A stretch of 45,102 nt of DNA. Origin: Candidatus Nomurabacteria bacterium (GTDB lineage Bacteria; Patescibacteriota; Minisyncoccia; Phycocordibacterales; UBA10002). The position numbers and the translations under genes were made by a program. The stretch is taken from NCBI GenBank assembly GCA_943349725.1, contig CALQZP010000002.1, positions 1 through 45,102 on the forward strand. Reading direction: 5' to 3'. Under the pieces are notes generated by a model. It was given only the letters and a program-made list of their open reading frames with translations. It was not told where the DNA came from and made no database searches. Below are positions 6,020 through 43,364 of the stretch, piece by piece (positions within the stretch are counted from its first letter, which is position 1; each line of letters begins with the position of its first letter).

Positions 6020-8284
6020 TCACTTCGCCACCGCCACTGCTTCGTCAAACGCAATAGAGAGGAGTTTGGACACTCCGCTTTTGTCCATGGTAACGCCGTA
6101 GATGACTCCGGCGCGGGACATCGTCTCGCGATTGTGCGTGATGAGGATAAGCTGTGAGTGTTTGGAAAGGTTCTCCACCATATCGCCATACTTCTTGGAG
6201 TTCGCCTCATCAAGTGCGGCGTCCGTTTCGTCAAGAATGATAAACGGCGGGGGTTTCACTTGCGACATCGCGAAGAGAAGCGCGATAGAGGTGAGAGCGC
6301 GCTCCCCACCCGAGAGCATCATCAGCGCTTTTATTTTCTTGCGCGGAAGGTTCACTTCAATGTCTATACCTGTTTCCTTTTCGGTGTCTTCGGGCACCGT
6401 TATTCCCTCCTCACTCGCGAGAAGGTCATCCATTTCCCTTCGTACTTTCTTCTCGGGCTTTGCGATCGAGAGTTTGGCCGAACCGCCCCCGAACATAAGG
6501 GAGAAATAATTCTGGAACTCTTTGTTTATCTTTAGAATACCGCCACGAAACTCCTCGTCGAGCTTCATAGAGAGCTCAGTGATAAGTTCACGAAGCGTCT
6601 CGGCGCTCTTCTCAAGGTCTGCAAGTTCGCGCGCGAGAAACTGGTCTCGCTCCGTCGCCTCCTCAAACTCCTTGAGGACTTCCGCTCCGCTTCCCCCGCC
6701 GGCATCTTCAATGCGAATTTTAAGCTTCTCTACTCTTCGTCGTCGCTCTTCTTGTTTTATCCGATCTTCAGACGTACTCGTCTGAAGATTTAGGACAGTA
6801 CCCGATTCATCTTTTACCTCCGCCTTTTCATACTCCATAAGTTCTCTCCCGACGAGAAGTATTCCCTCGGTCAGTTCTCGCTTGAAATCCCCTTCCAAAT
6901 GTTCAAGCTCGGAGTGCCTCACCCGAAGCGCGGTGAGCGTTCCGTGAAGCTCATTTTGGCGAGCCATAATGCGAAATACTTCCTTCTCCGCGTCACGACT
7001 TGAATCTTTTTCCTTCTCAATATCCAAGCGGAGTTTCTTTTCATCCTGCGCGACTTCCCCTTCAGCGTGCTGAATTTCGGAGAGCTTCTTTTCCGCCCCT
7101 TGTTTCTTTTCGCGAAGCGAGGCAATCTCCCGTTCAAAACCCTCGATACTCGGGTTTTTCTTTTGACGATATTTATCCAAAAGTCCGCCAAGAGCGTGCT
7201 TCACCGTTTCAAACGCTCGCTTCAACAGACCAATGTCTTCGCTCGTAAACGCCTGATCCACCTCCTTTGCAATGGACTCCACTTCGGAAATCGGGATAAG
7301 CGCTTCACTTACTTTTGCAGATTCCTGTGTGCTCTTCATACGCTCCGTGGACGCTATCTCACCCTCAAGCCGTCCAATGTCACGGGAAATACTTTCACGC
7401 TCCCTGCGGAGGCCATTTAAGCGCTCCTCAACCGCAATGACCGCCTTGGTCTTTGCATCCGCTCCGTGCGTTTCTTCCAAAATCTTTTTTGATGCGGAAA
7501 GTTTCTGTTCCAAATCGGCAAGCTCCGCTTTCGGCGAGCGTTCTTCATCGGATATCTTTTGTTTGGTGTGGGTGAGATAGGTATGCTCGCGTTTCAAATA
7601 CTCCGCGTAAAGCGAGCGGAGTTCTTCCTTGAGCAGTTTGGTCTTTTCCACCTTCTCCACCTGCTTTTTGAGAAAGGCGATATGCGGAGCAATCTCACGG
7701 CGCAGTGACCCCACCTGCTTCATATTTTCCTCGGTCTTTAGAAGTTTCCGTTCCGACTCCTCGCGCTTCCACTCAAATATCTTGAGACCAAGTGCATCCT
7801 CAATCATCTCGCGTCGCTCGCGCATATTGGCGTTCAGTATCCTGTCCGCTTCGCCTTGCGAAATAATGTGATGTCCCGACGCTCCAATATGCGCGCCCGA
7901 AAGGAGCTCTACAATATCGCGAAGCCGAACGGGTGAGCCGTTCACGAGATATTCGCTTCCCGCGTCGCGATAGATAACGCGTTCAATCGTTACTTCATCT
8001 ACATCAAGATTGAGCAATCGTTTTCGGTTATCAAACACGAGCTTTACCGACGCGCGGTTTGAGCGTCCTACTTCGGGGGAACCGTTCCAGATGAGGTCCT
8101 CGGTGCGCTTCCCGCGCATACTCTTGATGGACTGCTCGCCGAGTACAAAGCGAAATGCTTCGGCGGTATTGCTCTTCCCGCTTCCGTTTGGCCCCACGAT
8201 GCCCGTGATGGGCGTGTTGAAAGAGAGTTCGGTCTTCTTGGCGAACGATTTGAAACCGATGAGTTCTAGGCTTTTGAGATACAT
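6020..8284 (-). CDS. smc: SMC-family chromosome segregation ATPase, unusually short (754 aa)
   Basis: N-terminal Walker A GPNGSGKSN within an SMC-type head. C-terminal signature LSGGERALTSIALLFAM and Walker B FIILDETDAALD. Long coiled-coil middle. Stop codon is TGA. Confidence 0.85.
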   Translation of the reverse strand: MYLKSLELIGFKSFAKKTELSFNTPITGIVGPNGSGKSNTAEAFRFVLGEQSIKSMRGKRTEDLIWNGSPEVGRSNRASVKLVFDNRKRLLNLDVDEVTIERVIYRDAGSEYLVNGSPVRLRDIVELLSGAHIGASGHHIISQGEADRILNANMRERREMIEDALGLKIFEWKREESERKLLKTEENMKQVGSLRREIAPHIAFLKKQVEKVEKTKLLKEELRSLYAEYLKREHTYLTHTKQKISDEERSPKAELADLEQKLSASKKILEETHGADAKTKAVIAVEERLNGLRRERESISRDIGRLEGEIASTERMKSTQESAKVSEALIPISEVESIAKEVDQAFTSEDIGLLKRAFETVKHALGGLLDKYRQKKNPSIEGFEREIASLREKKQGAEKKLSEIQHAEGEVAQDEKKLRLDIEKEKDSSRDAEKEVFRIMARQNELHGTLTALRVRHSELEHLEGDFKRELTEGILLVGRELMEYEKAEVKDESGTVLNLQTSTSEDRIKQEERRRRVEKLKIRIEDAGGGSGAEVLKEFEEATERDQFLARELADLEKSAETLRELITELSMKLDEEFRGGILKINKEFQNYFSLMFGGGSAKLSIAKPEKKVRREMDDLLASEEGITVPEDTEKETGIDIEVNLPRKKIKALMMLSGGERALTSIALLFAMSQVKPPPFIILDETDAALDEANSKKYGDMVENLSKHSQLILITHNRETMSRAGVIYGVTMDKSGVSKLLSIAFDEAVAVAK

Positions 8285-22839: not shown

Positions 22840-24798
22840 CTAGCGGACTTCCCAGCCGTTTAATTTGAGTGCGCTGTAGACCTTTTCCATGCTGGCGTTC
22901 ACTTCCTCGTCGGAGAGGGTTCGGTCGAAGGATTGAAAGACGAGGCGGAATGCGAGGGATTTTTTGCCGTCTTTTAAAAACTCGTCAAAAAGCTCAGGGC
23001 CACGAACGACAAGCTGACCAGCGTTTTCTTTAATTGCTTTTGCAACCGAATCTGCGGAAGGAAAAACATCCCCCGCCTCCGAAGACGGAGGTACCCCCTT
23101 TGCTAAGGGGGATACAAACAGCGCCACGTCGCGAACAATAAATGGATACAGCGAAAACGGAGCAAACTTCACGTTGCGCGAAGGGAAAACAGAAATATCC
23201 CATTTTTTTGGTTCAGAAAGCCCATCAAGGACCTGATTTAGAGTACACTCAAATACTCCGTCTTTCATTTCTCCGGTAAGGGTTACACAGAGCTCCTTCC
23301 CAAGGAGTTCTACCACTCCAGTAAGTTCGCCTGCAATCTTCTTCTTCGGTCCTCCGTAGCCAATCGCAAGTGAGGTAACTTCCCCGCTCGTAGGCTTGCC
23401 CGCCGAAGCCTCGGCGAAGGCGGGAAAGATGCGACCAATCTCAAAAATACGCGTTTCGGATGTTCCGAGTAGCGGAGCGTTTAGTGCATTCATTTTAAGC
23501 GCTTTCTCAAAATTACCGCGTAGGTTCGCTCGCGCGTACTTCTTGTCCTCCGCAAGTGGCTTTAAAATAGCAATCTCGCCGGTATCTGAAAAAGAAGACG
23601 TCTGTATCTCCGAAAAGCCAGCGTTTACCAGAATTTCGCGGATTTTCCACTCGTAGTAAAAGGACGTGGGAATTTCCGTGACTCCTCCCGCTTGAGGAAC
23701 AACTGCAAGAATCTTGTCATAACCAATAATCCGACCGACTTCTTCCACGATGTCTTCGAAAATTACTAAATCAAGACGCTCGGGTGGAATATGCGCCAGA
23801 AGCTTCTCGCCTTCTTTATTACAGGAAATACCCAATCGGCGGAGGACATCAACAATCTCAGGCTCGGAAAGTGCTACACCGAGTTTCCGCGAAATGAGCT
23901 CCGTGTCTACCTCGAGAGTTCGTGCATGGACTTCTTCAAATGAAACTATTTCTCGCTTCCCTATTCTCACACCCTCGGCGCCCGTGATTGATTCTATAAG
24001 TAAGGCAAGCCGGTCAATCCCTTCTTCGCCGAGGAGCGGAGAAAGCCGATTCTCGAAACGCTTTGACGCTTCGGTTTTGATGCCAGTCGAGGTTGCGGTG
24101 CGACGGATATAAGAAGGGTTCCAATTGGCCGCTTCCAAGATAAGGTTTTTGGTCGCCTCGTCTACTTCTGCACGTTTCCCTCCTTTGATTCCCGCAAGTG
24201 AAAGCGGCCCTTCGTCATCGGCAATCACCAGTTCATTATTGTTGAGTTCCACCCGCTTGTTATCAAGGGTCACCATTACCTCACCCTTTCGTGCAAAACG
24301 AACCACAAGCCCGCCCTTCACCTTGTCCGCGTCAAAGGCATGAAGTGGCCGTCCGATATCAAACATCACATAGTTTGTAGCATCAACGATATTATTGATT
24401 GAACGCTGGCCGATAGACTCGAGTGCCTCTTTAAGCCACGCGGGAGACTCCCCAACCTTAACATTTTCCATGCTCCGTGCGACAAATTTCGTACAAAGCT
24501 CCGGTTCATCAATCCGAACATCGACAGAAATCACGTCTGGAGATTCCACAATTTTCTTTTCTTCCCGATTTTTGAGAGGTACATTCAAAATCGCAGAAAC
24601 TTCCCGTGCAATACCGCGGTGCGAAAGCGCGTAGCAGGCTCTGTCTGGAAGAACTTTAACATCCAAAACAGTATCGTTGCCGACATGCTCAACACTCTCG
24701 ATTTCGGCAAATGAAAAAGTAATCCGATCTGAAAGCTCCTCCGATGTTGGAAGTTTTTCATCAAAATATGACTGCAACCATTTATAAGAAACTTTCAT
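22840..24798 (-). CDS. pheT: Phenylalanyl-tRNA synthetase beta subunit, without the OB tRNA-binding domain
   Basis: B1 start MKVSYKWLQSYF runs directly into LPDRACYALSHRGIAREV. B3/4, B5 and a C-terminal FDX-ACB-like region are present. Length is 652 aa. Confidence 0.9.
   Translation of the reverse strand: MKVSYKWLQSYFDEKLPTSEELSDRITFSFAEIESVEHVGNDTVLDVKVLPDRACYALSHRGIAREVSAILNVPLKNREEKKIVESPDVISVDVRIDEPELCTKFVARSMENVKVGESPAWLKEALESIGQRSINNIVDATNYVMFDIGRPLHAFDADKVKGGLVVRFARKGEVMVTLDNKRVELNNNELVIADDEGPLSLAGIKGGKRAEVDEATKNLILEAANWNPSYIRRTATSTGIKTEASKRFENRLSPLLGEEGIDRLALLIESITGAEGVRIGKREIVSFEEVHARTLEVDTELISRKLGVALSEPEIVDVLRRLGISCNKEGEKLLAHIPPERLDLVIFEDIVEEVGRIIGYDKILAVVPQAGGVTEIPTSFYYEWKIREILVNAGFSEIQTSSFSDTGEIAILKPLAEDKKYARANLRGNFEKALKMNALNAPLLGTSETRIFEIGRIFPAFAEASAGKPTSGEVTSLAIGYGGPKKKIAGELTGVVELLGKELCVTLTGEMKDGVFECTLNQVLDGLSEPKKWDISVFPSRNVKFAPFSLYPFIVRDVALFVSPLAKGVPPSSEAGDVFPSADSVAKAIKENAGQLVVRGPELFDEFLKDGKKSLAFRLVFQSFDRTLSDEEVNASMEKVYSALKLNGWEVR
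23070..23113. repeat. Family A hairpin element in-frame in pheT
   Basis: CCCCCGCCTCCGAAGACGGAGGTACCCCCTTTGCTAAGGGGGATA encodes SPLAKGVPPSSEAGD. It is the reverse complement of the RpiB-type element. Confidence 0.85.
23399..23423. repeat. GC hairpin element in-frame in pheT
   Basis: CCCGCCGAAGCCTCGGCGAAGGCGGG encodes AFAEASAGKP. Confidence 0.6.
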
Positions 24799-26179: not shown

Positions 26180-26240
26180 GCGCTCTATTTAAGCACAAAA
26201 GACCGCTCTTTGGAACGGGTTTAAACACCACCACCCCCAA

Positions 26241-26319
26241 ACCCCTCCTTAACTGAGGAGGGGAAGAAATCCCTCCTGCCAAAGACGGCAGTACTCCCTT
26301 TAGGAAAGGGAGAATTAAG
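26241..26319. repeat. Array of GC hairpin modules 3' of tRNA-Thr
   Basis: CCCTCCTTAACTGAGGAGGG, CTGCCAAAGACGGCAG and TACTCCCTTTAGGAAAGGGAGAATTAAGA. The last module recurs at 31983-32008 and 35109-35135. Confidence 0.8.
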
Positions 26320-26320
26320 A

Positions 26321-26396
26321 TGGAGCCGCCTCCCAGATTTGAACTGGGGACATCCACTTTACAAAAGTGGCGCTCTACCAACTGAGCTAAGGCGGC
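26321..26396 (-). tRNA. tRNA-Thr (anticodon UGU), CCA encoded
   Basis: The minus strand folds as a cloverleaf: acceptor GCCGCCT/AGGCGGC, D-arm GCTC/GAGC, anticodon stem CCACT/AGTGG with loop TTTGTAA, T-arm CCCAG-TTCAAAT-CTGGG, then T-CCA. Confidence 0.93.
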
Positions 26397-31914: not shown

Positions 31915-32024
31915 ATCCGTGCCTGTTTTATTCCTCCTTTTTTAAAGCCTGCTCGACTGAACGACCTCAGTCGTTCGGGCGGGCTCCCTTTAGCAAAGGG
32001 AGAATAAGATGCCCCACAATGGTA

Positions 32025-32085: not shown

Positions 32086-32793
32086 TTATTTTTTGGCCTC
32101 TTTCTTTTCCTCCTTCTTTGCGGGAGCCTTTGCAGAAGCGCCTCCTTCGGCGGCTGTAGCACCTTCTTCGCCTGGAACAGGCTCTTTACCCTTCTTCATT
32201 ACTTCAATCGTAGAGAGGTCAACCGGAGCTTCCTCCACCACTTCTTCTCTCGGTTCGTACACCGAGGCGATAACGTCGTCGGGAGAAATAACGAGAGTTA
32301 CACCTTCGGGAAGGTTAATTTCCTTGGCGGTAATGACGCTGTCAAACGCGACAAGCGGAGAAATATCAATTTCAAGTTTCTGGGGAAGGTTTTTCGGCTC
32401 GGCTTCAATTTCAAGGCTGTGCACCACTTTGACGAGCACACCACCAAGGTCCTTAACCGCGGGAGAAACACCCTTAAATTCAATCGGAACCTTAATCTTG
32501 AGTTTCTGTCCTTTTTCAAACACGTAAAAGTCGGCGTGACGAGCCTCACCTGTTACCGGATGCTTATCCACATCGTGAATAAGAGAGGGAATCTCTTCGG
32601 TGCCGTGCTGAAGATTGACGACGGTGTTTTCACCGGCCTTTTTCCAGACCTTTCCAAAATCACGAGTAGAAAGCGTGATGGAGGTTGACGCTTGTTTCTT
32701 ACCGTAAAAGACCGCGGGAATCTTACCTCCGTTTCTAAGGGTATTCGGAGCCACTTTCGGGTCCCGCTTTTCAAAAGCTAAGTTGATTGCCAT
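32086..32793 (-). CDS. rplY: 50S ribosomal protein L25/Ctc
   Basis: RNGGKIPAVFYGK and HPVTGEARHADF, with an acidic/lysine-rich tail. Confidence 0.9.
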   Translation of the reverse strand: MAINLAFEKRDPKVAPNTLRNGGKIPAVFYGKKQASTSITLSTRDFGKVWKKAGENTVVNLQHGTEEIPSLIHDVDKHPVTGEARHADFYVFEKGQKLKIKVPIEFKGVSPAVKDLGGVLVKVVHSLEIEAEPKNLPQKLEIDISPLVAFDSVITAKEINLPEGVTLVISPDDVIASVYEPREEVVEEAPVDLSTIEVMKKGKEPVPGEEGATAAEGGASAKAPAKKEEKKEAKK

Positions 32794-32818
32794 AGGGCGA
32801 TACTATAGCGAAATCTTC

Positions 32819-33226
32819 CTAAAAATGCAACGTGTTTGGTTCCTCCTTTGTAAAAGGAGGTGCCGAGGTCTTCCGAGGCGGAGGATTTAAGACATCTTCA
32901 ATAGTTCGTAGTACGCCTTCCATGTTATGACGTACATCACTATCTAGAAATCGGAGAAATCGAATGCCTTCACACTCTATCGCCTTTTGTCTTTGAATAT
33001 CCTTATCAATCTTTCCATTATGCGTTGCACCATCAATTTCAAGGGCAAGCCTTAGCTTTTCACAGTAGAAGTCAACTACATAGGTCAATATAGGCCGTTG
33101 TCGAAGGAATTGAACCCCTAATTTCCTCGCCTTCAATTCCTTCCACAAAAGCGCTTCGGCAAGATTGCCTGACGAGCGTAGAATTCGTCCGACTTTTTTC
33201 AAATCTGAACGATAGTGAAGCTTCAT
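32819..33226 (-). CDS. DUF559 (Vsr/restriction-endonuclease-like) domain protein
   Basis: AEALLWKELKARKLGVQFLRQRPILTYVVDFYCEKLRLALEIDGATH...EGIRFLRF is the typical DUF559 pattern. The last ~22 aa (NPPPRKTSAPPFTKEEPNTLHF) are encoded by the left element. GGAGG lies 4 nt before the ATG, inside the right element. Confidence 0.8.
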   Translation of the reverse strand: MKLHYRSDLKKVGRILRSSGNLAEALLWKELKARKLGVQFLRQRPILTYVVDFYCEKLRLALEIDGATHNGKIDKDIQRQKAIECEGIRFLRFLDSDVRHNMEGVLRTIEDVLNPPPRKTSAPPFTKEEPNTLHF

Positions 33227-33282
33227 AAATCCTCCGTCCTGATAAGAATCAGGACACCTCCTTTTGCAAAGGAGGAACTAAG
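32838..33282 (-). mobile_element. Candidate composite unit: DUF559 nuclease gene bracketed by inverted ~55-bp family A elements
   Basis: Left copy 32838-32891 (forward), right copy 33227-33282 (reverse). The outer 25 nt match at 23/25 (GTTCCTCCTTTGyAAAAGGAGGTG), and both inner ends read CGGAGGATTTA. Confidence 0.45.
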
Positions 33283-34383: not shown

Positions 34384-35493
34384 ATGCACAAACAACTAGA
34401 CTTCCTCGCCATCGGCGACATCACGACCGACGCGTTTATAAAACTCAAAGAAGCCAGTGTTTCCTGCGATATTGATAAGGAGAACTGCACCATCTCAATG
34501 CGCTTTGCCGACAAAGTCCCCTACGAATCGGTAGAGGTTGTCCGCGCGGTCGGCAATTCGCCGAACGCTTCGGTGTCAGCCTCTCGCCTCGGACTCGCTT
34601 CCGGACTTGTCACCGACATTGGTGATGACGAAAATGGACGCGACTGCACGGACACGCTGAAACAGGAAAAAGTAGACACCAGCCTAGTCACCATCCACAA
34701 AGGAGAGAAAACAAACTACCACTACGTCTTGATGTATGAGGCAGAGCGTACGATTTTGGTAAAGCACGAGGAGTATAGCTACAAACTTCCCGCGATTGAA
34801 CCTGCGCCAAAATGGATATATCTTTCGTCACTCGGGGGAAACTCGGAACAGTATCACTCTGAACTCGCGGACTACCTTGAGAGCAATCCTGGAGTACAAC
34901 TCGCTTTTCAGCCCGGAACTTTTCAGATGAAATTAGGAAGAGAGAAGCTAAAAAGACTTTACCAGCGTTCCGCTCTCTTCTTCTGCAATAAGGAGGAGGC
35001 GGGGCGCATTCTCTCTTTCCCCATTCCTCCTTTACTAAAGGAGGTGTCCGAGTCTTCGAGGACGGAGGATTTAAATCCCTCCCCCTCACGGGGGTCTACG
35101 ACCATTTCAGTACTCCCTTTGGAAAAGGGAGAATTGCACATCAAAAAGTTACTTTCTGGTATCGGCGCACTTGGACCAAAAACTGTGGTGATTACCGACG
35201 GACCAAAAGGTGCGTACGCATACGATAGCGCCACAGACGAATACTTATTTATGCCGATTTACCCGGACCCGAAACCTCCCGTTTCCCGCACAGGTGCCGG
35301 TGATGCCTTCGCCTCAACTTTTACCTCCGCCATTATTCTCGGCAAATCGGTCAAAGAGGCACTCACGTGGGCGCCTATCAACTCCGCCTATGTAGTGCAA
35401 CAAATCGGCGCACAAAAAGGACTCCTTACTCGCGCGGAGCTTGAAAACTATCTTGCCTCTGCACCTGAAAACTACACGCCTGCACACCTCTAA
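34384..35493 (+). CDS. PfkB-family carbohydrate kinase with a ~37-aa repeat-encoded insertion
   Basis: Ribokinase-like start DFLAIGDITTDAF and C-terminal motif TGAGDAFASTF. The insertion is at 35024-35135. Confidence 0.85.
   Translation: MHKQLDFLAIGDITTDAFIKLKEASVSCDIDKENCTISMRFADKVPYESVEVVRAVGNSPNASVSASRLGLASGLVTDIGDDENGRDCTDTLKQEKVDTSLVTIHKGEKTNYHYVLMYEAERTILVKHEEYSYKLPAIEPAPKWIYLSSLGGNSEQYHSELADYLESNPGVQLAFQPGTFQMKLGREKLKRLYQRSALFFCNKEEAGRILSFPIPPLLKEVSESSRTEDLNPSPSRGSTTISVLPLEKGELHIKKLLSGIGALGPKTVVITDGPKGAYAYDSATDEYLFMPIYPDPKPPVSRTGAGDAFASTFTSAIILGKSVKEALTWAPINSAYVVQQIGAQKGLLTRAELENYLASAPENYTPAHL
35024..35135. repeat. Composite family A hairpin array in-frame in the PfkB kinase
   Basis: TTCCTCCTTTACTAAAGGAGGTGTCCGAGTCTTCGAGGACGGAGGATTTAAAT is nearly identical to 32840-32889. 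It is followed by CCCTCCCCCTCACGGGGG and GTACTCCCTTTGGAAAAGGGAGAATT. Confidence 0.9.
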
Positions 35494-42848: not shown

Positions 42849-43364
42849 TTATACCATATCAATTTTCTTCAGTCTTCTGATGTGTCGTTCATCATTTGAA
42901 AATGGTGTCAGAAGCCACAGGCGCACCGCTTCCTTGGCGTCTTCTAGTGTGACGAACCGTGTACCGATAGTGATGACATTTGAGTCATTGTGGTCTCGCG
43001 AAACCGTCACCATACTCGGGTTGTTGCCGTAATAGACGACCGCTCGAACACCGGGGACACGATTGGCCGCAATCATTTCACCCTGCCCGGAACCTGCGGG
43101 AACAATCCCTCGGACCAATCGGGAATCCCCCTTAGTAAAGGGGGTGCCGGAGGCGGGGGTTGTTGACATCTCTCCTCCCTTTTCTAGGGGAGAGTAGGAC
43201 GCAACTTTCCTCGCCATCGGTATCACATAGTCGGGATAGTCATCGGTCTTATCAAACGTAAGCGGACCACAATCCTCCACGTCGTGTCCCAGCGTTTTCA
43301 CGTACGCCATCAGCTCTTTTTTAAGTTCAAACCCGGCATGGTCACCGGCGAAATATATTTTCAT
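42849..43364 (-). CDS. rpiB: Ribose-5-phosphate isomerase B with a repeat-encoded insertion
   Basis: MKIYFAGDHAGFELK and GSGQGEMIAANRVPGVRA (Glu-type active site, as in mycobacterial RpiB). The insertion is at 43126-43197. Confidence 0.88.
   Translation of the reverse strand: MKIYFAGDHAGFELKKELMAYVKTLGHDVEDCGPLTFDKTDDYPDYVIPMARKVASYSPLEKGGEMSTTPASGTPFTKGDSRLVRGIVPAGSGQGEMIAANRVPGVRAVVYYGNNPSMVTVSRDHNDSNVITIGTRFVTLEDAKEAVRLWLLTPFSNDERHIRRLKKIDMV
43126..43197. repeat. Family A hairpin array in-frame in rpiB
   Basis: ATCCCCCTTAGTAAAGGGGGTGCCGGAGGCGGGGG and CTCTCCTCCCTTTTCTAGGGGAGAG encode SYSPLEKGGEMSTTPASGTPFTKGD. Confidence 0.9.

Follow-up and report, generated by a model that had tools for sequence, protein, structure and literature searches.

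In a 45,102-nt stretch of a Candidatus Nomurabacteria genome (assembly GCA_943349725.1, contig CALQZP010000002.1, positions 1 to 45,102; the whole stretch is hereafter called the window), a short nuclease gene of the DUF559 family lies between two inverted copies of a structured repeat. Judged from its sequence, this locus is a single instance of a module that is widespread and has two parts, a gene for a DUF559 nuclease of ~115 amino acids (aa) and an inverted pair of repeats, each of which is a potential intrastrand purine-motif triplex of the BoxC / PIT / TM design. Bracketing of DUF559 genes by triplex-type repeats appears not to have been reported before. We favour the interpretation that gene and repeats form a selfish partnership, comparable to the REP/RAYT systems (repetitive extragenic palindromes and their associated tyrosine transposases) or to homing endonucleases; we infer that the nuclease acts on the repeats, and we assign this interpretation a probability of about 0.55.

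Inverted structured repeats bracket a DUF559 nuclease gene

The gene (window positions 32819-33226, minus strand) encodes a protein of 135 aa that matches Pfam PF04480 with E = 4.9e-27 and 94.4 bits, against a curated cut-off of 20.6. Its aa 9-113 align with profile positions 3-108 of 109, so that the DUF559 domain is whole, and a Pfam scan of the protein returned DUF559 and MTES_1575 only, with no DDE, serine, tyrosine or HUH transposase. Residues E24, D52, E63, D65 and H69 are invariant in an alignment of homologues and D95 is nearly so, which fits the E-D-x-H-D active-site pattern of Vsr-like nucleases (motif as in PMC3239194). A profile search of PDB sequences retrieved NGO0050 of N. gonorrhoeae (3HRL, E = 8e-23) and the catalytic domain of I-Bth0305I (3R3P, E = 2.5e-5). 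The AlphaFold (AF2) model has a predicted local distance difference test score (pLDDT) of 82.5, with a disordered tail at 114-135, and its structural matches in Foldseek were 3HRL, 3R3P, the nuclease domains of AbaSI and PvuRts1I, and Vsr (1CW0); the top two were 3HRL (TM-score 0.86 on target) and I-Bth0305I (3R3P; probability 1.00, TM-score 0.76 on target). The one NCBIfam model to which the protein is related is that of YcjD (PRK09767, E = 6.7e-16). The DUF559 protein is thus a predicted nuclease of the Vsr-like EDxHD type. A defence-system reading of the gene was dropped, since PADLOC gave weak matches to nuclease domains only and nothing specific.

The open reading frame (ORF) has inverted repeats on both sides, placed exactly where the domain ends. 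The outer arms of the inverted repeat (32836-32862 and 33255-33281, 27 nt) and the inner arms (32879-32892 and 33223-33236, 14 nt) are each 93% complementary, and the 16-18 nt that separate outer from inner arms are not the same in the two copies. The original prediction, made from the letters of the window, had described a 135-aa DUF559 ORF between inverted elements of ~55 nt with both inner ends reading CGGAGGATTTA, and that description stands; the bracketing architecture is almost certainly real. The 5′ terminal repeat (33223-33282, minus strand; strict triplex-motif match at 33228-33275) reads, on the minus strand, outer TTAGTT, a first hairpin (H1) CCTCCTTT-GCA-AAAGGAGG, a second hairpin TCCTGAT-tctt-ATCAGGA (minimum free energy, MFE, -10.9 versus -1.3 when shuffled), a third strand GGAGGATT, and T-ATG. 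Its outer end overlaps the TAG stop codon of the 2-hydroxyacid dehydrogenase gene. It also supplies, as had been claimed, a GGAGG 4 nt 5′ of the DUF559 ATG (CGGAGGATTTATG), so placed that the third-strand GGAGG doubles as the Shine-Dalgarno sequence of the gene. The 3′ terminal repeat is the inverted copy (32836-32892, plus strand; strict match at 32842-32887) and reads, on the plus strand, outer TTGGTT, H1 CCTCCTTT-GTA-AAAGGAGG, hairpin 2 GCCGAGG-tctt-CCGAGGC, which holds tandem G.A pairs, and third strand GGAGGATT. The H1 stems are perfect over 8 bp at both ends of the cassette.

The repeat at the 3′ end is also read as protein. It encodes the tail of the DUF559 protein, aa ~113-130, while the final 5 codons (NTLHF) and the stop lie beyond the element. 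The heptapeptide PPFTKEE in this tail, PPLxKEE or PPFxKGE in homologues, is the translation of H1 of the 3′ repeat. It had been proposed that the left copy overwrote the native 3′ end of the gene; this was rejected because the domain is whole and the tail is conserved across the family, and an element-encoded tail is, to judge from the homologues, the normal architecture of this DUF559 subfamily. Upstream of rplY there is an apparent conserved promoter, TTGCAT-17 nt-TATAGT, which ends 8 nt before the ATG (window 32791-32830, minus strand), would give a nearly leaderless transcript and recurs in relatives whether or not they have the cassette; the last DUF559 codons and the stop codon fall in its spacer.

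Comparison of the window with two related loci that carry the same cassette (L091 and L092) gave a dN/dS of 0.10-0.12 for the nuclease domain at a dS that ranged from 1.1 to not computable, that is, near or at saturation, and H1 and the third strand are almost identical over the same divergence. These values mean that the protein is functional and under purifying selection, that the repeats are constrained and that the cassette can be long-lived by vertical descent.

The repeats follow the rules of a purine-motif intrastrand triplex

From outside to inside, a half-element consists of an outer motif (c)TTaATT, H1 (CCTCCTTT or CTCCCTTT, a 3-nt loop, then AAAGGAGG or AAAGGGAG), a linker of 2-3 bases, the variable hairpin 2, and a G-rich segment (GGAGGATT or GAGGGATT) followed by T. 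The G-rich segment repeats the purine arm of H1 in mirror order instead of copying it directly; when the two are aligned antiparallel, every triad is G·G, A·A or T·A, so that the repeat follows the rules of a purine-motif intrastrand triplex. In the window copies GGAGGATT mirrors AAAGGAGG with 8/8 triads. Among 109 repeat halves from the window and related loci the mirror rule is perfect in 74 and the direct-copy rule in 35. A reading of the two G-runs as direct repeats, for instance tandem protein-binding sites, was rejected because the mirror rule is ahead by 49 to 11 in the informative halves. The three strands covary by subtype, as in the pairs of purine arm and third strand AAAGGGAG/GAGGGATT, AAAGGAGG/GGAGGATT, AGAGGGG/GGGGTGT, AAGGGGGA/AGGGGGTT and GGAGAAGG/GGTTGAGG.

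Hairpin 2 is conserved in structure, not in sequence. Over 74 distinct copies from the candidate phyla radiation (CPR) its mean MFE is -5.5 versus -2.1 kcal/mol for shuffled sequences, it lies below the shuffle mean in 63 of them, and it is formed by many unrelated perfect stems, some with tandem G.A pairs. None of the Rfam families fits the repeats in the window and seven related loci; a Flavo-1 match in one of these loci (L087) proved to be an unrelated sequence 2 kb away.

Repeats of this design, BoxC/PIT/TM, have been known in E. coli since the 1990s. They were named BoxC, then PIT (potential intrastrand triplex) elements and then TM or TMECO (Holder et al. 2015, PMC4666352), and that our element follows this known triplex-repeat design had been missed in the original prediction. 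The TMECO consensus is CCCTCNCCC-N3-6-GGGNGAGGG-N3-GGGNGAGGG; 23 copies are reported in MG1655 and 3610 in 262 proteobacterial genomes, always intergenic, five of the MG1655 sites being inverted pairs that always join type A with type B (PMC4666352). The CPR repeats share with these the order of a C-rich arm, a loop, a complementary G-rich arm, a loop and a mirror second G-rich arm, as well as dispersed copies, inverted pairs of two distinct types and hypervariable loci, the TM loci having elevated variability between strains (PMC4666352). They differ in their arms (CCTCCTTT/CTCCCTTT, with third strand GGAGGATT, against CCCTCNCCC in E. coli); in loop 2, which at 17-31 nt carries an extra covarying hairpin, compared with 3 nt in TMECO; in that three copies lie in frame in genes, unlike the always intergenic TMECO; and in that they bracket a nuclease gene, whereas the published TM work ties the repeats to no enzyme. 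By sequence, the CPR repeat has the BoxC/PIT/TM design but is not the E. coli family itself. Holder et al. found no association with transposons, phages or plasmids and called the origin of the motif unclear, and the words ycjD and endonuclease are absent from their paper (PMC4666352). Within the openly readable literature on DUF559, ycjD, Vsr-like nucleases, BoxC/PIT/TMECO and in-frame repeats of Parcubacteria, subscription-only papers being outside its scope, we found no report of the gene-repeat link.

DUF559 genes and repeats occur together across bacteria

A homologue search returned 200 DUF559 proteins at E ≤ 1e-5, mainly from CPR/Parcubacteria and also from many other phyla, and many of them end in PPLxKEE or PPFxKGE directly before the stop. 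We collected 80 loci from species-representative genomes of CPR, Ekhidna, Pontibacter, Flavobacteriaceae, Nitrospirota, Deltaproteobacteria, Ignavibacteria, Zixibacteria and Chloroflexota, and scored each gene by the strongest inverted repeat that links the 160 nt upstream to the region of the 3′ end, with a threshold of at least 13. This score was reached by 56 of the 74 testable DUF559 loci and by 0 of 360 control positions in the same loci; DUF559 genes of this subfamily are thus systematically repeat-flanked, as the original prediction had suggested might be found. Under the strict triplex definition a copy in the correct orientation lies on each side of 38 of the 80 genes and on a single side of a further 18, with a repeat density elsewhere in the loci of 0.83 per 10 kb (strict) or 0.41 per 10 kb (by similarity to the local repeat). 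Two patterns that would have refuted the original prediction, unflanked paralogs at background repeat density and independent insertions of gene and elements, were not observed.

The unit is recognisable at large distances. Two distant CPR genomes bracket the gene likewise, with ATTCTCCCTTT..AAAGGGAG-hairpin-GGAGGGATTT-ATG at the 5′ end and AAATCCTCCG-hairpin-CACCTCCTTT..AAAGGAGGAAT at the 3′ end, and Bacteroidota have the same design with the G-run 10-50 nt from the start codon. Relatives 37-40% identical on viral-labelled contigs are bracketed too, by arms of another sequence that obey the mirror rule. Carriage by phages was considered and set aside, as the IMG/VR contigs hold only distant relatives (at most 40% identity), though the best of these are repeat-flanked. 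Repeats of CCCCCTT type accompany DUF559 proteins that are up to 86% identical in metagenome-assembled genomes (MAGs) of different phyla; L028 and L038, among other loci, have such proteins with the same repeat type in MAGs assigned to Deltaproteobacteria and Nitrospira. This pattern suggests horizontal transfer of the whole gene-repeat unit, or possibly binning errors instead.

The arrangement of the two ends connects the cassette with its gene-less counterparts. All gene-less inverted pairs (doublets) found in CPR combine one CTCCC-type and one CCTCC-type half, joined at ATTT(0-6 nt)AAAT, and most CPR cassettes have a CTCCC-type repeat at the 5′ end and a CCTCC-type repeat at the 3′ end; the window cassette and its orthologues are of CCTCC type at both ends. 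In sequence terms, a doublet corresponds to a cassette minus the gene. Two nested repeats per side are common in cassettes (L095, L007, L020, L025, L044), which suggests that new insertions enter doublets already in place, at their centre.

Presence, absence and decay of the cassette at the dehydrogenase-rplY junction

Scanning metagenomes with the 2-hydroxyacid dehydrogenase next to the cassette yielded 80 loci, in 15 of which the L25 protein was also matched; the dehydrogenase-rplY junction is preserved wholly or in part in 13 loci, and we read 14 junctions. The cassette is present with the same repeats in L091 and L092, whose DUF559 proteins are 73% and 71% identical to that of the window. 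It is also present in L099, where the gene is split by an unrelated MITE (miniature transposable element with inverted repeats) of ~170 nt (at ~6200-6400, with terminal repeats TAGGACTTACGCGTTTG...CAAACGCGTAAGTCCTA). L095 has a different repeat subtype with nested copies and an internally deleted DUF559 remnant. Seven loci (L093, L166, L113, L097, L101, L115, L096) have no trace of gene or repeats, and one of these, L096, is a clean empty site with 37 nt between the stop codon and the rplY start. The search for empty sites at this junction that the original prediction had called for thus yielded both clean empty sites and decayed cassettes. In none of the junctions read did the gene occur without repeats, or repeats without the gene or a remnant of it.

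The closest relative, L093 (dehydrogenase 93% identical), has at the junction an unrelated ORF of ~230 aa (1955-2690, MRFELPDDKGEVEKAADAIWKRAEEY...), which points to a hot spot for different inserts. AC-rich/GT-rich palindromes of 100-200 nt, members of a different family of intergenic hairpins, occupy the junctions of L101, L113, L115 and L166. Because the cassette is retained in L091 and L092 at near-saturated dS, it is not a frequently hopping transposon, and these comparisons indicate that it can persist vertically for long periods.

Gene-less copies in the window, including in-frame insertions

The hairpin pattern has 7 matches in the window versus 0.02 expected, and the strict structural scan has 9 versus 0.03 in shuffles. 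Eight of the nine are real elements, namely the two cassette ends, two halves in a PfkB-family kinase gene, two after tRNA-Thr, one in pheT and one in rpiB; the ninth is a reverse reading of the palindromic H1 of the right repeat. An nhmmer profile of the three best copies recovered those copies at E ~1e-17 to 1e-18 (9e-18 for the PfkB copy) together with weaker relatives.

The copy in the PfkB gene had been taken for a solo element of ~50 nt. It is instead a gene-less inverted pair of ~116 nt (35022-35137, plus strand), identified by nhmmer, the strict scan and comparison with orthologues, in which a half of CCTCC type (35026-35071, plus) and a half of CTCCC type (35074-35131, minus) are fused where GGAGGATTT meets AAATCCCTCC. 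The doublet is in frame and encodes 36 aa, and orthologous PfkB proteins on related contigs are without exactly these 36 aa. The same surface loop of PfkB (gene 34384-35493, codons ~212-252) has received three insertions in three lineages, being occupied by a single CCCCC-type repeat in L099 and by an unrelated palindrome in L096.

Variants in rpiB and pheT had also been predicted, and both are present, although in a second subtype that shares the design and differs in sequence (CCCCCTT...GGGGGTT/AT). The pheT copy (23068-23111, minus strand; strict scan and Pfam) is a single CCCCC-subtype repeat in frame within the FDX-ACB domain, with CCCCCTT-AGCA-AAGGGGG, hairpin 2 CCTCCG-tctt-CGGAGG, third strand GGGGGAT and the peptide SPLAKGVPPSSEAG. 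In rpiB (43100-43200, plus strand; strict scan and Pfam) a CCCCC-subtype repeat (43127-43161) and an adjacent CTCTCC..GGGGAGAG hairpin lie in frame in antisense orientation, and the insertion, of ~23 aa net relative to solved RpiB structures, divides the alignment into two blocks and the Pfam match into two stretches. The in-frame copies in PfkB, rpiB and pheT are, on these sequence comparisons, real insertions. The window holds no cognate DUF559 gene for the CCCCC subtype of rpiB and pheT; several repeat subtypes occur in one genome, yet a single cognate DUF559 gene is visible in the window.

Two tandem triplex-type repeats (26230-26320, minus strand; strict scan) follow directly on the CCA end of tRNA-Thr, one of CTCCC type with hairpin 2 (26268-26312) and one of a compact CCCCTCCT type (26230-26263). 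They start right after the encoded CCA of the tRNA-Thr(TGT) (window 26230-26396), a placement that suggests either insertion beside tRNA 3′ ends or a role at transcript ends. Compact variants without hairpin 2 (CCCCTCCT..AGGAGGGG..GGGGTGGT) occur beside the long form in the same genomes (window 43170-43195 and 26230-26263; upstream region of L014). Finally, a degenerate intergenic doublet lies between rplY and an SLT-domain gene (31925-32010, minus strand), with a CTCCC-type H1, an internal hairpin and a remnant CCTCC-type H1.

ycjD and the TM repeats of E. coli

The DUF559 gene of E. coli, ycjD, has a degenerate C-run/G-run hairpin at its 3′ end, and a TM repeat, TMECO no. 9 / BoxC (1351204-1351239), lies 168 nt downstream. 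Between ycjD and TMECO no. 9 the K-12 sequence (L173 2541-2910, ycjD-fabI) contains a second, partial copy of the ycjD 3′ end (GAGACGGTGCTGGAGAATATTC...), which suggests an older rearranged or nested cassette. The gene is present in 3378 of 5426 complete E. coli genomes. Strains without it have the eefRABCD operon at the same site and are missing TMECO no. 9 too, so that the sapF-fabI interval is occupied by either ycjD or the eefRABCD efflux operon; these alternatives are linked to phylogroups (PMC12817139). Among 58 chromosomes sampled at even spacing, those with ycjD have 11-26 TM-like places (median 16) versus 1-16 (median 3) in those without (Mann-Whitney p 6e-9), a correlation that is suggestive as a parallel to the CPR cassettes. 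The hrpB-mrcB doublet exists in filled, empty and collapsed-to-single-hairpin alleles.

Relation to known systems

A close parallel in organisation is REP/RAYT, where, as here, a single nuclease gene lies between inverted copies of a dispersed, hairpin-forming repeat, the main form in which copies are dispersed is the gene-less inverted doublet, and inheritance is mostly vertical. The enzymes are of different kinds, a Vsr-like nuclease of the PD-(D/E)XK superfamily here and an HUH/Y1 (IS200-like) transposase there; the present repeats have no GTAG or CGTC tag, and the CPR repeat has a third, mirror-symmetric strand. By analogy, then, the DUF559 cassette may be said to work like a REP/RAYT system without being a member.

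A close parallel in enzymology is the EDxHD homing endonuclease I-Bth0305I (3R3P), whose catalytic domain is homologous and shares the conserved residues of the active site; this enzyme cleaves a pseudopalindromic site, and its activity is tied to dimerisation (PMC3239194). The DUF559 gene, as read from the sequence, sits at the exact centre of a palindromic doublet junction, as a homing gene does in its target, and would split that putative target. Unlike I-Bth0305I, the DUF559 ORF is free-standing, with no intron or intein and no N-terminal DNA-binding region of NUMOD or helix-turn-helix type, and its presumed target is a repeated element, not a conserved host gene.

Bacterial MITEs, among them the Rickettsia palindromic elements (RPEs), are found inside coding sequences, and RPEs resemble the present repeats as short palindromic repeats in frame within enzymes (here PfkB, rpiB and pheT). 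They are unrelated in sequence and design to the triplex motif, and we know of no gene established as associated with them. YcjD of E. coli and NGO0050 of N. gonorrhoeae (3HRL) belong to the same DUF559 domain family; the repeat association of YcjD is loose by comparison, comprising only the degenerate 3′ hairpin and the BoxC copy downstream. A transposon with terminal inverted repeats (TIRs) and MITEs shares with the cassette its terminal inverted repeats and its presence/absence polymorphism, and differs in that the cassette has no recognised transposase.

A proposed selfish partnership of nuclease and repeat, and its alternatives

Two considerations make a selfish partnership of nuclease and repeats our preferred reading: splitting a palindromic doublet exactly at its centre, as the gene does, is the logic of a homing endonuclease, and one mostly vertical nuclease gene inside a genome-dispersed repeat is the pattern of REP/RAYT. 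Under this model the nuclease, probably dimeric like I-Bth0305I, would recognise the repeat and cut there, its target being the palindromic doublet junction, where GGAGGATTT meets AAATCCTCC, or a folded single-stranded form. Repair of the break would copy element DNA from another copy. The gene could thereby enter doublets in a homing-like manner, since its insertion splits the site, and gene-less copies would be maintained or amplified in trans, as they are for REPINs by RAYT. The module would be inherited mostly vertically, with frequent decay and loss and occasional moves between lineages. Doublets and singlets without the gene are scattered in the genome and persist at sites that tolerate them, among them the in-frame positions in PfkB, rpiB and pheT.

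Several points weigh against this model. No target-site duplication is visible at the dehydrogenase-rplY junction, in PfkB or at E. coli hrpB-mrcB, where filled and empty alleles were compared and the flanks have diverged, none of the three hrpB-mrcB alleles has a clean duplication, and neither the CPR nor the E. coli filled and empty alleles reveal a defined footprint; with neither duplication nor footprint, the first arrival at new loci such as coding sequences goes unexplained. Retention of the cassette at one junction in lineages whose synonymous sites are near or at saturation would also fit a domesticated or host-useful gene. No clear flanking repeat was found in 18 of 74 homologues, or in 24 of 80 by the strict criteria. 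The cross-phylum identity may reflect binning errors, and counts of gene and repeats in the source genome cover the 45-kb window only. The TM single strand forms a triplex in vitro, but none was detected in vivo (PMC4666352). In E. coli, ycjD is not neatly bracketed by repeats, and exceptions to the copy-number trend exist among strains without it, with 12 copies in O157:H7 and 9-16 in a few others; we have downgraded the correlation because the split follows phylogroups and so represents few independent events, and because some of the ycjD-less strains keep 9-16 copies.

One alternative is that DUF559 is a host-serving, structure-specific nuclease that resolves hairpins or triplexes, the repeats having spread by other means and the flanking copies being substrates or autoregulatory operators. 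We consider this unlikely. It would account for the strong purifying selection, the long syntenic retention and the Vsr-type repair-enzyme fold that the structural model predicts, and it gains from reports that TM repeats are sources of instability and block polymerases in vitro (PMC4666352); in CPR, moreover, the third strand is the ribosome-binding site and would permit structure-dependent translational control. It leaves unexplained, however, why the gene lies between the two end types of gene-less doublets, why gene and repeats are gained, lost and decay jointly at one junction, and why the repeat type travels with the protein across phyla. Many genomes, besides, have no other repeat copy within 20 kb, so that there would be little for such an enzyme to police.

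A classical cut-and-paste TIR transposon, with DUF559 as the sole transposase and the doublets as MITEs derived by internal deletion, is rather improbable in our view. The original prediction had pointed in this direction, to an autonomous and non-autonomous mobile pair. That part of it which concerns the bracketing, and the existence of gene-less pairs with the end types of the cassette, was borne out, and TIR-TIR copies without the gene, the internally deleted intermediate in L095, the presence/absence polymorphism and the resemblance of some doublet centres (ATTTTGAAATCC) to an ATGAAAT start joined to a GAAATCC gene end would all agree with a transposon. The cut-and-paste part was not: no target-site duplication is visible, if with diverged flanks, and the cassette is retained in synteny while synonymous sites near or reach saturation. 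The protein is a ~115-aa nuclease domain with no recognisable DNA-binding or strand-transfer module, whose known relatives nick or cut, and a cut-and-paste pair is less likely because such a Vsr-like nuclease has no known strand-transfer activity. In lineages that are very distant from one another, moreover, the gene occupies precisely the middle of the pair, which insertion into a palindromic target explains better than random internal deletions would. A transposase/MITE relationship is therefore less likely than a REP/RAYT-like or homing-like one.

That the elements act as RNA in cis, as terminators, mRNA stabilisers or sequestrators of the ribosome-binding site, with the link to DUF559 reflecting expression control of a horizontally transferred gene, seems to us very improbable. 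H1 does pair an anti-Shine-Dalgarno-like CACCTCCTTT with AAAGGAGG, elements do occur at gene ends and after a tRNA, and one terminator-like pattern overlaps hairpin 2. The mirror rule, however, is that of a purine-motif triplex, and the TM triplex does not form in RNA (PMC4666352); the elements occur in both orientations and within coding sequences; the design is kept in Bacteroidota, with the G-run at 10-50 nt from the start codon; no Rfam family fits; and PIT elements had neither promoter nor terminator activity in earlier work (cited in PMC4666352). Chance juxtaposition or an assembly artefact can be dismissed for practical purposes, since, although repeats are fairly dense in the window (8 real elements in 45 kb), none of the 360 controls reached the score seen at 56 of 74 DUF559 genes and the cassette recurs both at the same junction and in independent assemblies.

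Implications

The selfish partnership that we favour leads to a broader proposal, which we advance tentatively and at somewhat less than even odds: that DUF559 proteins are the missing partner enzymes of BoxC/PIT/TM repeats across bacteria, and that together they form an unrecognised class of selfish DNA that evolved independently of REP/RAYT, in which a minimal Vsr-like nuclease would recognise a folded or palindromic repeat and drive the copying of itself and of doublets, in CPR prolifically enough to remodel enzymes by in-frame insertion. The hypothesis is directly testable in E. coli, which has ycjD and, in K-12, 23 TM copies. If the nuclease does act on the repeats, this would give a function to DUF559, a large family that includes YcjD and a protein of solved structure; it would account for how BoxC/PIT/TM repeats arise and spread; and it would be a second case, with another chemistry, of the REP/RAYT paradigm of a nuclease that maintains structured repeats. 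It would also provide a naturally occurring setting for a protein that may recognise a non-B DNA fold. For CPR bacteria the in-frame copies show that small genomes tolerate repeat insertions within core enzymes.

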